Origin: Candidatus Bathyarchaeota archaeon
GTDB lineage: Archaea > Thermoproteota > Bathyarchaeia > Bathyarchaeales > Bathycorpusculaceae
Assembly: GCA_963775465.1 (NCBI GenBank)
Contig: CAVZIW010000006.1
Location: 192,001-256,000, forward strand
Length of the DNA: 64,000 nucleotides
Reading direction: 5' to 3'
Each line of letters begins with the position of its first letter. Position 1 is the stretch's first letter. This document shows positions 59,259 through 64,000 of this stretch, in pieces. Both the position numbers and the translations under genes were made by a program. Below the pieces are notes generated by a model that was given only the letters and a program-made list of their open reading frames with translations, did not search any database and had not been told where the DNA came from.

Positions 59259-61340
59259 ATGAAGTTGCCGACCTTAACTTTCCAAAAAGAAGCGTTTGCA
59301 AGTTATAACAAACTTGTAGAGAAGGAGTGGCTAATAACCAATGGGTTGGGTGGTTACGCTTCCTCAACTGTCTTGGGGATTAACACTCGAAAATATCATG
59401 GATTGCTTGTTGCTGCTTTGGACCCTCCTGGAAACCGAACGGTTTGCCTCTCAAAACTTGACGAGGACGTTTTGGTGGGCAATGATGTTTATCGGTTAGG
59501 CTCAAATGAGTTTCACAAGACAATTTATCCCGAAGGTTACAAGCTAATTAGACAGTTTACGGTCGATCTGTTTCCAACTTACATCTATGAGTCGGGTAAC
59601 GTCCAGATTATAAAAACAGTGTTCATGCCCAAACACAAAAATGCCGTAGTAATAGCCTACAAACTTAGAAACAAAAATAACTCACAAGTCAAAATTAGAC
59701 TTTATCCGCTTCTAACATGCAGACATTATCACAACGTAATCTACCAATCAAGAGTGCCATTGAATTTTACCCTAAAAAGCACCAATGAACAATTAGAAGC
59801 AGTTTTTCAACGACCCCACGCCACAATAGTTTGCCGCGCAACTGAGGGGCAATTCAAAGAAGGTGTAAACTGGTTAGCCCATCTCCATTATCGCGATGAA
59901 TTGTTGCGCGGGGAAGCTGATGTTGACGACTGTTTCCAGCCAGGATATTTCGAATTGGAGGTGCAAGCTAACATTGAGAAAGAGTTTGCAGTTACATGTG
60001 TTGCCAGCAATGAAAGCCAAGAGACCGAAAGAATTTTGGATTCGATTGGCAACTCAATCAACGAGGTTCAGAACGCATTTCTTAAAGAAGTGAACCAAAA
60101 ATCTGAAATGCTTTTGACTTTTCAACGTGATCATCCAGAAGCGTCTATGAATGATTGGCTAAACTGGGCGTTGCTTGCTGCCAACTCTTTCCTTGTAGAG
60201 GGCGCAAATGCAAGAAAAGCCGTTATTGCAGGATACCATTGGTTTGAGGCTTGGGGTAGAGACACTTTCGTCTCGTTGCCTGGGTTGTTACTGGTTACAG
60301 GCAAATATGATGATGCCAAAAATGTACTGCGAAGCTTCATCAAGTACAGCAAGAGTGGGTTGATTCCCAATTTTGTTCCTGACAAATCAGCTATTCCCGT
60401 TTACGATACCGTTGACGCAACTTTGTGGTACATTAACGCTGTATTGCAGTACGTTAAATACACTGGCGATTTTGCTTTTGTTAAAGACGAGTTGTGGGAA
60501 AAACTGCAGGAATTAGTTGAGAATCACCAGAAGGGCACCCTATTTGGTATCCAAGTTGACCGTGACGGTTTGCTCAAGCATGGTCCAAGACTCACTTGGA
60601 TGGACGCTGCTGTTGGAAACGACGCAATTACTCCAAGAACAGGTAAAGCAGTGGAAATTCAAGCCCTATGGTATAATACCTTGAAAACCATGGAGTTGCT
60701 TGCGAACGTATTTGAAGGCCCCGAATTAGCTGAAAAGTACGGCTTCACGGCAAACCAAGCTAAGCAAAATTTCAGCGAGAAATTTTGGAACCCGCAGAAA
60801 AACTGCCTCTACGATGTAATCGATGAAGAGAGCTTAGATGCTTCTATTCGTCCAAACCAAATATTCGCAGTCTCCCTTGACTATACTATGCTTAACATCG
60901 AAAAGAGTCAAAGTGTTGTTGAACTCGTAAATCGTGAACTTGTAACACCCTACGGTTTAAGGACACTATCTCTGGGCGACCCCAAGTTCATTGGGAAATG
61001 TGCAGGAGACAGCCGAAGCAGAGATAGGGCTTACCACAATGGAACGATTTGGCCATGGCTACTAGGACCCTACGTTACGGCGTACCTAAAAGTCAATGAT
61101 TACACTGAAAAGGCACGTCAGCAAATGCTCGAAAACCTTGTGCTGCCTCTTTTCACTACAGCAATCCATCAAGGTTGTTTAGGAACCATAAATGAAATAT
61201 ACGACTCTGATCCCCCAAACGAACCCCGAGGCTGCATCTCGCAAGCATGGAGCGTTGCAGAACCCTTACGAGCCTATGTTGAAGATATAATGCAAGTTAA
61301 GCCCAAGAGATCTTCGGGGTTCTTAGTCCTTAAGCATTGA
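59259..61340 (+). CDS. Archaeal-type glycogen debranching enzyme (amylo-alpha-1,6-glucosidase)
   Basis: EWLITNGLGGYAS, AGYHWF..WGRDT, LTWMDA, IRPNQ, YHNGTIWPW, QAWSVAE. Confidence 0.93.
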   Translation: MKLPTLTFQKEAFASYNKLVEKEWLITNGLGGYASSTVLGINTRKYHGLLVAALDPPGNRTVCLSKLDEDVLVGNDVYRLGSNEFHKTIYPEGYKLIRQFTVDLFPTYIYESGNVQIIKTVFMPKHKNAVVIAYKLRNKNNSQVKIRLYPLLTCRHYHNVIYQSRVPLNFTLKSTNEQLEAVFQRPHATIVCRATEGQFKEGVNWLAHLHYRDELLRGEADVDDCFQPGYFELEVQANIEKEFAVTCVASNESQETERILDSIGNSINEVQNAFLKEVNQKSEMLLTFQRDHPEASMNDWLNWALLAANSFLVEGANARKAVIAGYHWFEAWGRDTFVSLPGLLLVTGKYDDAKNVLRSFIKYSKSGLIPNFVPDKSAIPVYDTVDATLWYINAVLQYVKYTGDFAFVKDELWEKLQELVENHQKGTLFGIQVDRDGLLKHGPRLTWMDAAVGNDAITPRTGKAVEIQALWYNTLKTMELLANVFEGPELAEKYGFTANQAKQNFSEKFWNPQKNCLYDVIDEESLDASIRPNQIFAVSLDYTMLNIEKSQSVVELVNRELVTPYGLRTLSLGDPKFIGKCAGDSRSRDRAYHNGTIWPWLLGPYVTAYLKVNDYTEKARQQMLENLVLPLFTTAIHQGCLGTINEIYDSDPPNEPRGCISQAWSVAEPLRAYVEDIMQVKPKRSSGFLVLKH

Positions 61341-62370
61341 TCGATTTTTTTAGGCTTTCAGCAGCGCTTTCTGGCGTGACTGTATTGATGTAGACGCCCG
61401 TGCTTTTCTCAAAACCTGCCCACGTCACCAGTTTGGGGTATACCTCCAAATGCCAATGATAATAATCTACTGCATTTGGGTCAATTGAGATGTGGAAGCC
61501 GAAATTGTAGGGAGGGTCATTGACAACATCTTTTAGGGCTCTGAGGCTTGTTTGAAGGGTTCTTGCAAACGATAAAGCCTCATTCCCAGATAAATTTAGG
61601 ATGTTCGGGGAGTGTTTTTTAGGAATTATCCAGAATTCCATCGGGTTGATGCTGGCGTAGGGAGCAAAAATCAAAAATTCACCGTTTTCTAATATATTTC
61701 TTGAACTTTGTGCTTCCTTCTTGATTATACCGCAGAAAACACATTTTTTATGTTCCTCAAAAAATGATTTGCTGGCTACTTGCTCTTTTTGTAGTAATGT
61801 GGGTATCATTGGGGTTGCTATTATTTGGCTGTGAGCATGGGATAATGATGCTCCAGCTTCTCTGCCATAGTTGCGGAAAATCGACACATACTTAACATAG
61901 GGTTTGTTACGTAGTTCGTTTAGTCGGTCAATATAGGCTTTTATTATAAGTTCAAGTTGATCCAGCTTCGCATCGGTCGGTTCTTCGTTATGGATTGGTG
62001 ATTCAACAATGACCTCATGATGTCCGATTGCGTAACCGAAGTCTTTATTTCTAAATATCTTTGTTGTTTCTTCTGGAACTTTGGGCGGAGTGAATGCAGG
62101 GAATAAGTTTGGTATAACTCTCACAAGCCAATCTTTAGATCGCTCTCCCAGGCTTGGGTCTTGAAGGCGTTTTATCTCGCCGTTTACCTTCTGGTAGAGC
62201 ATGATTGCGGGGGGTGTCATATTTTCGTTGCCAACGCACAGAGGACAAACAGATGTGTTTATTTGTGCGGGTTTGGGTTTCGCCAAGTCAGTGGGTCGGC
62301 GTGCTCGTTCCATGGCAATGACTACCCAGCGGTCGAGTAAGTAATCCTTTCTTAGTTCATTGTAAGGCAT
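61330..62370 (-). CDS. galT: Galactose-1-phosphate uridylyltransferase family (HIT)
   Basis: NELRKD, ERARRP, CPLC.GNE, GASLSHAHSQ, HWHLE. Confidence 0.9.
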   Translation of the reverse strand: MPYNELRKDYLLDRWVVIAMERARRPTDLAKPKPAQINTSVCPLCVGNENMTPPAIMLYQKVNGEIKRLQDPSLGERSKDWLVRVIPNLFPAFTPPKVPEETTKIFRNKDFGYAIGHHEVIVESPIHNEEPTDAKLDQLELIIKAYIDRLNELRNKPYVKYVSIFRNYGREAGASLSHAHSQIIATPMIPTLLQKEQVASKSFFEEHKKCVFCGIIKKEAQSSRNILENGEFLIFAPYASINPMEFWIIPKKHSPNILNLSGNEALSFARTLQTSLRALKDVVNDPPYNFGFHISIDPNAVDYYHWHLEVYPKLVTWAGFEKSTGVYINTVTPESAAESLKKSINA

Positions 62371-62888
62371 GCTTTCCACAGGCAAATGGGGGCACTGAGT
62401 CATTTTAGCATAACAATAGAATCAATATTGGTATTGTTTCCATTGCCAAGCTCACTCCCACTGTCTTTTTTCACCCCACAAGTTTTCAACTTTCAAAAGT
62501 TCAACGGCATTATTAAGGTTTAGTGGAAAAAAAGTGACCATTCCTTTCATTTAGAGTCAATCTTTTTACTACTTTCAGATATTTGATTGGAATATCACGG
62601 TCAATAATTCTTATGTAAATAAGGTGTTTTCTATCTATAACTAAAGGGTTCTTATTTTCATCTCTCTTGAATTTGAAAGGGTAATTCCAATCTAAATAAA
62701 TTGGACACCCCATCTGCCTCAACCGTCTACCTGTAATTTGCAGAATAATTCCGACTGTACTTTGGTCATTTTTATTTTTACAACTCTTTGAAAACTACCA
62801 ACTAAATTTGACTTTTTCAGTTTATTTTGAAATGCTGTGAACCATAGTTAAACTAAAAATGGGGGTAAAATGAAAAACAAACAAATGT

Positions 62889-63614
62889 TTATGAATATTT
62901 TTCTAGCAATTCTTTTACTGCTTTTAGCAACTCTGCGGGGTTATCCTTTAGCTGTTCGCTTAATCTGAAATGCGCTGGTTCCATCACTTCCGGTCGAACG
63001 ACGCGTATTTTGTCTCTAATGGTGCTTATCCGAGAAGCAAGGGTCAATTCAGGATATATTTCATCAATGACAGCAATAAGAACAGATTCTTCAGGTTGCA
63101 GGACCACTTGCGGATCAAACCAGTGAGCGGGCTCCATGACTTCGGGTCTTACGGCTATCGATGCACCGTGGGATGCAGTAGTTAATACTGGAGCAGTAAG
63201 GATTGGTTTTTTGAAGTGGGCGGGTTCCATCCAATCCGTCTTAAGTTTAAGTCTTAGTGCATCAAACCAAATTGCGTATAGACAGTATTTGCCTACAGAA
63301 GCTTTGATAGTGGTTTCTTTAATCTTGGAAAGCGCATTTTTTAGTTCACTTTCAAAGAGGGTTCCTCTAAGGTTATCGCCACCTATGATGAGGTTCGCGA
63401 CATTTCCTTTTTCACCGATTTCAACTACAATTGGAATTGTTGTCGTAACAACAAAACCAATTTTTCTTGAAACGCTATCGAAAGCATTATCGATCGCCTT
63501 TTGATATTTTTCCTTAATGACTCGATATATTGCAAGCAGATCTTCGTAATGTTTTATGATTCCAGGGTGTGCGGGTTCCATCCAATCGCGCAGTCGAAGG
63601 TTTTTCTCAGTCAA
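62889..63614 (-). CDS. Hypothetical protein with four MEPAH motif repeats
   Basis: 241-aa ORF; TTG start with AGGAGGTGA RBS overlapping the upstream stop; DWMEPAH x2 and RPEVMEPAH x2. Confidence 0.85.
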   Translation of the reverse strand: MTEKNLRLRDWMEPAHPGIIKHYEDLLAIYRVIKEKYQKAIDNAFDSVSRKIGFVVTTTIPIVVEIGEKGNVANLIIGGDNLRGTLFESELKNALSKIKETTIKASVGKYCLYAIWFDALRLKLKTDWMEPAHFKKPILTAPVLTTASHGASIAVRPEVMEPAHWFDPQVVLQPEESVLIAVIDEIYPELTLASRISTIRDKIRVVRPEVMEPAHFRLSEQLKDNPAELLKAVKELLEKYS

Positions 63615-63618
63615 TTTT

Positions 63619-64000
63619 TCACCTCCTTTGTTCTTCTTCTAGTTTCTTTTTGAAGAAGTTATAGGGAATCACATCTGGAGAAAGACCAATAAAATCAAGT
63701 ACACTGGCCTGAGGACCAAGTGCCTGATTTTGAAAGCTGTTTTTCATGTGATTGAATGATTGTTGTCCAGAGTTTTCTAAAATTGCATGAGCATAAATCG
63801 AGGGGACAGTTTTTTCCAGGTTATTCTTGTTTTTGTATGCCTCTTCGATCCAATCGATTATGGTTTGCCCTTGTAACCGTAGAATGCTACTTCTCATATC
63901 AATTTGCGCCCGCGTTTCTTGCGTAAAGTTGGCAATAGTTGCTTCGTCATGTTTTCCTTTAGATACGAAATCGTAGATTGTGCTTAGCCAGTGGTATGTA
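63619..64000 (-). CDS. Hypothetical protein, C-terminal part only (begins outside window)
   Basis: Frame of ORF 63619-63897 stays open to the window edge (TYHWLSTIYDFVSKGKHDEATIANFTQETRAQIDMRSS...). Confidence 0.8.
   Translation of the reverse strand, partial: TYHWLSTIYDFVSKGKHDEATIANFTQETRAQIDMRSSILRLQGQTIIDWIEEAYKNKNNLEKTVPSIYAHAILENSGQQSFNHMKNSFQNQALGPQASVLDFIGLSPDVIPYNFFKKKLEEEQRR

Follow-up and report, generated by a model that had tools for sequence, protein, structure and literature searches.

At the end of a 64,000-nucleotide (nt) stretch of the genome of a Candidatus Bathyarchaeota archaeon (hereafter the window; positions 192001-256000 of contig C6 in a 2.4-Mb, 15-contig assembly) lies a two-gene locus on the minus strand. 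The second gene encodes a 241-residue protein that carries the pentapeptide MEPAH four times, which we call the EPAH protein; the first gene, cut by the end of the window, encodes a B12-binding radical S-adenosylmethionine (SAM) enzyme. The original prediction, made from the window alone, had proposed that the EPAH protein is a substrate or scaffold in a system resembling those of ribosomally synthesized and post-translationally modified peptides (RiPPs), and that the truncated upstream gene encodes its partner enzyme. Here we describe both genes, including the sequence past the window end (L002), and their relatives in other genomes and metagenomes. The features of the locus are as follows.

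62889..63614, minus strand: EPAH-repeat protein gene; 241 amino acids (aa), TTG start, TAA stop at 62889-62891
63567..63581, minus strand: MEPAH copy 1; residues 12-16, ahead of the folded core
63216..63230, minus strand: MEPAH copy 2; residues 129-133, opening a low-confidence linker
63123..63137, minus strand: MEPAH copy 3; residues 160-164, followed by an invariant W-F
62970..62984, minus strand: MEPAH copy 4; residues 211-215, the unit that is multiplied in homologs
63622..63626, minus strand: GGAGG ribosome-binding site, abutting the radical SAM stop, 7 nt before the TTG
63619..64000, minus strand: 3' end of the B12-binding radical SAM gene; last 126 codons and stop within the window
L002 3619-5373 or to 5439 (window-equivalent 63619-65373/65439), minus strand: full radical SAM gene, extending past the window end
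62851..62888, minus strand: T-rich stretch after the EPAH stop, possibly an archaeal terminator

The two genes are separated by a gap of 4 nt, with the radical SAM stop codon (TGA) at 63619-63621 and the EPAH start codon (TTG) at 63612-63614. This gap, together with the GGAGG that abuts the upstream stop, is consistent with translational coupling, as the original prediction had suggested from the position of the ribosome-binding site. The automatic gene call for the EPAH protein (P0001, 230 aa) begins at Met12, that is, with MEPAH itself, so that the two alternative starts lie within 63579-63614. Since homologs conserve residues 8-11 and keep R-D-W ahead of the first motif, the longer, TTG-initiated form is supported.

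The locus is also represented in RNA-labelled sequencing runs. Three such runs from salt marsh hold contigs at least 99% identical to it that cover the whole EPAH open reading frame (ORF) and parts of the enzyme gene. The runs fall under three study codes but come from one year and one habitat, so that they may belong to a single campaign, and DNA carry-over could account for their contigs as well as transcription. Run X5 yields one 764-nt contig that matches L002 2881-3644 with 0 differences and reaches less than 31 nt into the enzyme gene, so that it does not bridge the pair. In two RNA-labelled runs the contigs stop at window-equivalent positions 62865 and 62881, where the contig of a DNA run continues, a weak hint of termination in the T-rich stretch.

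In the sequence past the window end, the upstream frame is complete at 606 codons. The enzyme itself probably comprises 584 codons starting from the ATG at L002 5373, because its homologs begin at this codon and a GGAG precedes it. Two Pfam domains are detected well above their cut-offs: a B12-binding domain (PF02310, 57.4 bits against 32.1) at residues 34-143, and a Radical_SAM core (PF04055, 68.3 bits against 29.5) with a CxxxCxxC motif, whose cysteines C205, C209 and C212 are invariant in 44 sequences. Judged by these two domains, the enzyme is a member of the class B (B12-binding) radical SAM superfamily. The upstream gene is thus no housekeeping gene, and it encodes the kind of enzyme, radical SAM with CxxxCxxC and B12-binding, that the original prediction had suggested looking for.

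The enzyme falls below the curated cut-off of every NCBIfam family. Three candidate names were rejected on these scores: the hopanoid C-3 methylase HpnR (93.1 bits against a cut-off of 650), the anaerobic Mg-protoporphyrin cyclase BchE, which is the automatic label on many homologs (90.6 bits against 481.35), and the RiPP maturation radical SAM C-methyltransferase TIGR03975 (83.9 bits against 281.85). With all scores so far below the cut-offs, the sequence is silent on whether the substrate is a protein. An AlphaFold2 model of the enzyme built from 44 homologs reached a mean predicted local distance difference test score (pLDDT) of 83.1, and its best fold matches in the Protein Data Bank (PDB) are OxsB, TsrM, CysS, the methyl-coenzyme M reductase (MCR) glutamine methylase MgmA and TokK, at E-values from 7e-22 to 6e-16, probability 1.00 and 13-16% identity. 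MgmA (PDB 9ccb) and TsrM share with the enzyme both the B12-binding domain and the CxxxCxxC radical SAM core. C-terminal to this core, the enzyme has a conserved and confidently modelled helical domain (residues ~417-539), which is family-specific, and then a variable, disordered tail.

We compared both proteins with the PADLOC anti-phage defence models. The EPAH protein matched 0 families, and the enzyme gave a single generic match (PDC-M51A, 42.8 bits) that does not make it a member of a defence system.

The EPAH protein carries its four MEPAH copies with the flanks that were originally quoted. When the protein was shuffled 20,000 times, no shuffle reached four copies; the highest count for any pentapeptide was 2, seen in 480 shuffles. 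The original prediction had further held that the spacers are unrelated and that the differing codons point to selection on the peptide. The spacers are indeed unrelated in part, but copies 1 and 2 share DWMEPAH and copies 3 and 4 share VRPEVMEPAH. Likewise, the codons differ as listed, but the DNA of copies 1 and 2 is 95% identical over 21 nt (67-78% for the other copies), so that synonymous divergence within the gene is modest evidence. We take as strong evidence of selection on the peptide the invariance of the motif across homologs.

The 194 full-length homologs hold 808 motif instances, all of which have E, P and H (100%), and the third position is A in 89% and V in 9%; the expectation that homologs would keep the EPAH repeats is therefore confirmed. 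The extended pattern in these instances reads [V/L]-R-[P/R/T]-[D/E]-[W/V]-x-E-P-A-H-[F/P/W/Y], with variable positions at -1 and +2 flanking the core, and no conserved cleavage motif flanks the cores. In an alignment of 86 sequences with a mean column identity of 41%, the invariant positions are E13-P14-A15-H16, E130-P131-H133, E161-P162-H164 and E212, and the segment between motifs at residues 165-205 is highly conserved.

While the motif is invariant, its copy number is not. Most commonly the 194 proteins carry 4 copies (102 proteins) or 5 (38), and the remainder range from 0 (3 proteins), 1 (4), 2 (11) and 3 (16) to 6 (13), 7 (3), 8 (3) and 12 (1). Extra copies arise by two routes: a C-terminal unit consisting of the motif and an amphipathic helix ending in R-Y-G is repeated, or, in some homologs, bare motifs stand in tandem with spacers of 3-6 residues.

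A word-indexed search identified 438 EPAH homologs at E<=1e-3, none with a functional name, and a profile search of 1.84 billion cluster representatives identified 179 clusters at 50% identity, 96 of them at E<=1e-30, with no link to another family. The EPAH protein matches no Pfam family above threshold and no NCBIfam family. We found no fusion of enzyme and EPAH protein among the best 150 of the 179 profile hits, all lengths considered. In one metagenomic protein, P0207 (525 aa), the first 386 residues resemble a membrane protein and the remainder corresponds to the C-terminal half of an EPAH protein; P0207 has no match in Pfam, and a frameshift or an error of gene calling is a more probable source than a genuine fusion. 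Our literature searches, which did not reach subscription journals or supplementary files, found no published account of the EPAH/MEPAH motif or of the gene pair.

A weak match to DUF1128/UPF0435, a family of small YfkK-like Bacillus proteins, covers residues 192-219 of the EPAH protein, comprising a helix and motif 4. The match scores 20 bits against a Pfam cut-off of 27 and covers 28 residues, which does not place the protein in that family. Sub-threshold matches at E<=0.01 occur in 11 of 86 EPAH family members, and three homologs carry the Joint Genome Institute label "YfkK (UPF0435 family)". A DUF1128 search of the window's own genome gave no match, whereas a Bacillus subtilis control matched. 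Because DUF1128 itself has no known function, the resemblance is mechanistically unhelpful.

The AlphaFold2 model of the EPAH protein has a pLDDT of 72.9. Its confident core, residues 17-125, is predicted to contain a long helix, a small sheet and short helices, with C-terminal helices following, and the pLDDT falls below 50 in segments 1-7, 128-160 and 209-223. Motif 1 borders the confident core on its N-terminal side, a short helix starts with motif 3, and motifs 2 and 4 fall within low-confidence segments. Overall, the model suggests that the motifs are accessible rather than buried and mostly lie in flexible segments. The N-terminus is unlike a signal peptide, as judged by inspection only.

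A Foldseek search of the PDB with this model returned 0 matches at E<=0.001, and a profile search of PDB sequences returned chance-level matches to haemagglutinin only (E 0.4-0.6). Both structure comparison and a protein language-model atlas found the best resemblance of the core domain in the TonB/TolA C-terminal domain. This resemblance is weak and not significant (Foldseek E 0.19-0.5; atlas scores of 0.90 with few shared features), and we treat it as a lead only.

The two genes are linked near-obligately in both directions. Anchoring on the EPAH gene in 50 loci from one-genome-per-species collections, we found an enzyme homolog (53-84% identity) at 46, directly upstream in 44, downstream in one (L033) and separated by one ORF in another (L038); at two of the four loci without an enzyme, L028 and L054, the EPAH gene lies within ~250 nt of the contig end. 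Anchoring instead on the enzyme in the best 80 of 303 metagenome loci, we found an EPAH gene 8-270 nt downstream on the same strand at 77, and in the remaining 3 the contig runs out within 180 nt of downstream sequence. The conserved association with a candidate modifying enzyme that the original prediction had called for is thus present across genomes. That prediction had also named the outcomes that would tell against it, namely homologs without conserved EPAH repeats or without a consistent modifying enzyme, and a housekeeping gene upstream; each was checked, and none went against the prediction, whose interpretation is thereby supported.

No other gene family accompanies the pair. When the 692 ORFs within +/-8 kb of 51 loci were clustered, only the enzyme and EPAH families were widespread, the next family being present at 8 of 51 loci, and no protease, transporter/exporter or recognition-element family recurs within +/-8 kb of the 50 EPAH-anchored loci. 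Pairwise identities of enzyme and partner correlate with r = 0.87, a value reached in 0 of 2000 label permutations. This shows that the two genes are co-inherited as a unit, as expected for adjacent genes.

The module is broadly distributed among anaerobic archaea and bacteria. By record titles, the 50 loci include the archaeal groups Bathyarchaeota, Methanoperedens, ANME-2 and Methanosarcinales, and among bacteria many Acidobacteriota together with Geobacterales/Desulfuromonadales, Syntrophobacterales, Brocadia, Anaerolinea, Nitrospinae and Chlorobium. At least two cultured strains carry it, Geobacter hydrogenophilus DSM 13691 and Geomobilimonas luticola JCM 17780. Within the host clade we surveyed 60 relatives of the window's genome, comprising 36 congeners and 24 genomes from other families of the order. 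Two of the 36 congeners gave matches, one at 46% identity and one doubtful (E 4e-4, 23% identity), and 0 of the 24 genomes from other families did.

In the window, the pair is flanked by a glycogen debranching enzyme gene (59259-61340, plus strand; GDE_N and GDE_C domains) and a GalT/HIT-like nucleotidyltransferase gene (61330-62403, minus strand), which converge with their 3' ends overlapping by 11 nt. Congeners without the module keep these two genes in synteny. In genome G029 the module lies on a different contig from both, and at the locus of the closest relative, L005 (88% identity), neither occurs within 8 kb. Because the flanks differ even in the closest relative and in a congener, the two-gene unit behaves as a mobile, self-sufficient accessory module.

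Several other genes lie further upstream. About 330-400 nt beyond the radical SAM gene, L002 5772-7769 (minus strand) encodes a 665-aa protein with sub-threshold matches to Str_synth and HmuY, possibly a beta-propeller. It has no homolog at the closest relatives' loci that we checked (L005, L003 and five congener loci) and is probably outside the module. Farther on, L002 8999-10483 (plus strand) encodes another radical SAM enzyme, with similarity to PapB-like SPASM maturases and a best NCBIfam match to the FibroRumin maturase (179 bits against 400), and L002 10673-11254 (plus strand) encodes a 193-aa protein with a Cys-rich tandem repeat, in which CWSCGTGP occurs twice, followed by a further Cys-rich segment. 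The region L002 8999-11254 (window-equivalent 68999-71254, ~5-7 kb past the window end) is a candidate second peptide-maturation pair; ORFs related to its radical SAM gene occur at 5 of 50 EPAH loci, at varying distances. Beyond it, L002 11982-15000 carries contractile-injection or phage-tail-like genes, including those for a tail sheath (PF04984, PF17482), a gp19-type tube protein (PF06841) and an AAA ATPase with a weak CIS_tube match.

We propose that the locus is a self-contained, horizontally mobile two-gene module, whose first gene encodes a class B radical SAM enzyme and whose second, translationally coupled to the first, encodes the EPAH protein. The partner would be a cytoplasmic protein of ~240 aa that combines a folded core with flexible segments, on which the motif [D/E]-[W/V]-x-E-P-A-H-[aromatic/Pro] is presented four or more times, and every EPAH motif would be a site of post-translational modification by the enzyme. 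Most characterised class B radical SAM enzymes transfer a methyl group to an unactivated carbon, and by analogy C-methylation of Glu, Pro or His would be the likeliest reaction. We hold this reading with reasonable, though far from complete, confidence. Because E, P and H are invariant while A and V are tolerated at the third position, the target atom or the recognition determinants are suggested to lie within these three residues; we speculate that the helix of the repeated motif-and-helix unit helps docking. The end product would probably be the modified protein itself and not an excised peptide, because no protease or exporter family is conserved near the pair.

Several observations weigh against this proposal. 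The substrate role of the EPAH protein is read from gene linkage, and Glu and His are classic metal ligands, so that the motif could have a binding role, an alternative that the original prediction had itself named. By bit score, the enzyme is equally far from class B enzymes acting on small molecules (HpnR, BchE) and from those modifying peptides. Class B enzymes also carry out non-methylating chemistry, and OxsB, the best fold match, is among those that do. Loci L021 and L047 have shortened EPAH genes (162 and 188 aa) and no enzyme in the locus. Finally, one small subclade, represented by L045 and L048, keeps the enzyme and has lost or altered most of its EPAH motifs while gaining another repeat. 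These two loci (L045 7974-8723 and L048 7980-8876) come from metagenome-assembled genomes of Acidobacteriota/Terriglobia; the radical SAM gene is intact, the motif variants include ESAH and EPAQ, and the partner ends in a C-terminal triple repeat containing W-H-H-A-E-M-A-P-Y-P. In this subclade the target motif may have shifted. A structure prediction of the complex of enzyme, 4Fe-4S cluster, SAM and EPAH protein scored 0.33, 0.31 and 0.42, against 0.00, 0.15 and 0.00 for controls, and with a margin to the best control below the required 0.20 it counts neither for nor against binding.

The EPAH protein might instead be an accessory subunit that binds metal or corrinoid, or acts in delivery or regulation, through the Glu and His of its motifs, while the enzyme acts on another substrate, possibly a small molecule. 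Glu and His at i, i+3 spacing can bind metal, and a short His-containing motif that varies in copy number resembles metal-binding repeat tails. Moreover, conservation spans the whole protein beyond the motifs, including its folded core, small-molecule enzymes are among the best NCBIfam scores of the enzyme, and the absence of a conserved protease or exporter nearby fits an accessory role as well. We nevertheless judge this unlikely: a Pro conserved in 100% of motifs and a third position restricted to Ala or Val fit recognition by an enzyme better than they fit a simple pair of ligands, the window protein contains only 6 His and 1 Cys in total, and no conserved pathway gene lies nearby to supply or use a small-molecule substrate.

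A bolder version of the proposed modification is that the enzyme, rather than simply methylating, builds a novel protein-derived structure out of every E-P-A-H unit, such as a cross-link (Glu-His or Pro-centred) or a group resembling a cofactor. We give this version a low probability. If it were true, diverse anaerobic archaea and bacteria would contain a multi-site redox-active or metal-binding protein of an undescribed kind, and class B radical SAM enzymes would have a new type of reaction on protein substrates.

It is quite improbable that the EPAH protein is a true multi-core precursor of a RiPP or cofactor, whose modified EPAH units are excised by a protease encoded elsewhere and released in several copies. 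Tandem expansions with short spacers, copy numbers from 0 to 12, and an invariant core suggestive of a conserved product all speak for such a precursor. Its architecture does not: with motif 1 ahead of the folded core and the other three behind it, the protein has no leader-core order, residues 165-205 between motifs are themselves strongly conserved, and conserved cleavage motifs are missing around cores whose -1 and +2 positions vary. Nor does any protease, transporter or recognition-element family recur around the 50 loci. Judged by strict RiPP criteria, the precursor-like gene does lie beside a modifying enzyme (46 of 50 and 77 of 80 loci), but its motifs stand before, between and after folded segments rather than in a leader- or follower-core layout with proteolytic removal, and export or immunity genes are not found, the next most frequent family reaching just 8 of 51 loci. 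Of the original description as "RiPP-like", the adjacency of enzyme and repeat gene therefore stands, and what does not fit is the folded 241-aa partner without a leader-core order or an associated protease or exporter family. That the repeat and the gene adjacency arose by chance or as an annotation artefact is favoured by no observation and has a negligible probability, given that 0 of 20,000 shuffles reach the observed repeat count and that 438 homologs have conserved motifs and the linkage described above.

The proposed modification of the EPAH protein by its class B enzyme can be set beside known systems of two kinds. Among class B radical SAM enzymes, Mmp10 and the proteusin enzymes PoyB and PoyC reportedly modify peptides or proteins, and PoyB/PoyC have a dedicated protein or peptide partner encoded beside the enzyme, as in the EPAH pair. 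The EPAH enzyme is only 13-16% identical to the solved class B structures and has its own helical C-terminal domain. Its presumed target is not a single site or a leader-core peptide, as in those systems, but a short invariant motif of which a folded 240-aa protein presents 4 or more copies.

The second kind comprises pairs in which a short repeated motif of varying copy number is encoded beside a radical SAM enzyme, namely HxsA/HxsB (His-Xaa-Ser), GrrA/GrrM (Gly-rich-repeat), the CXXX-repeat and the Cys-every-fifth systems. The maturases of these pairs carry a SPASM domain and cross-link small peptides. By contrast, the EPAH enzyme is class B without a SPASM domain, and its partner is larger, has a folded core and lacks an NCBIfam model. 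The EPAH pair is a new, unnamed family that varies the known theme of a radical SAM enzyme with a repeat-motif target, departing from it in the class B enzyme, the folded protein partner and the lack of processing or export genes. With the modified protein itself as its probable product, the module would in this respect resemble dedicated protein maturation more than a secreted RiPP.

Class B radical SAM enzymes catalyse some of biology's hardest reactions, and, to our knowledge, substrates are known for only a minority of their thousands of sequence families. The EPAH module offers a genetically defined enzyme-substrate candidate, with two genes and an invariant motif that could be traced by mass spectrometry. 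The family is shared by archaea and bacteria, occurring in Bathyarchaeia, Methanoperedens and ANME-2 on one side and in Acidobacteriota, Geobacterales and Brocadia on the other. Defining the modification would give a new protein family its name, and possibly reveal a new post-translational modification of anaerobes in soils, wetlands and sediments.

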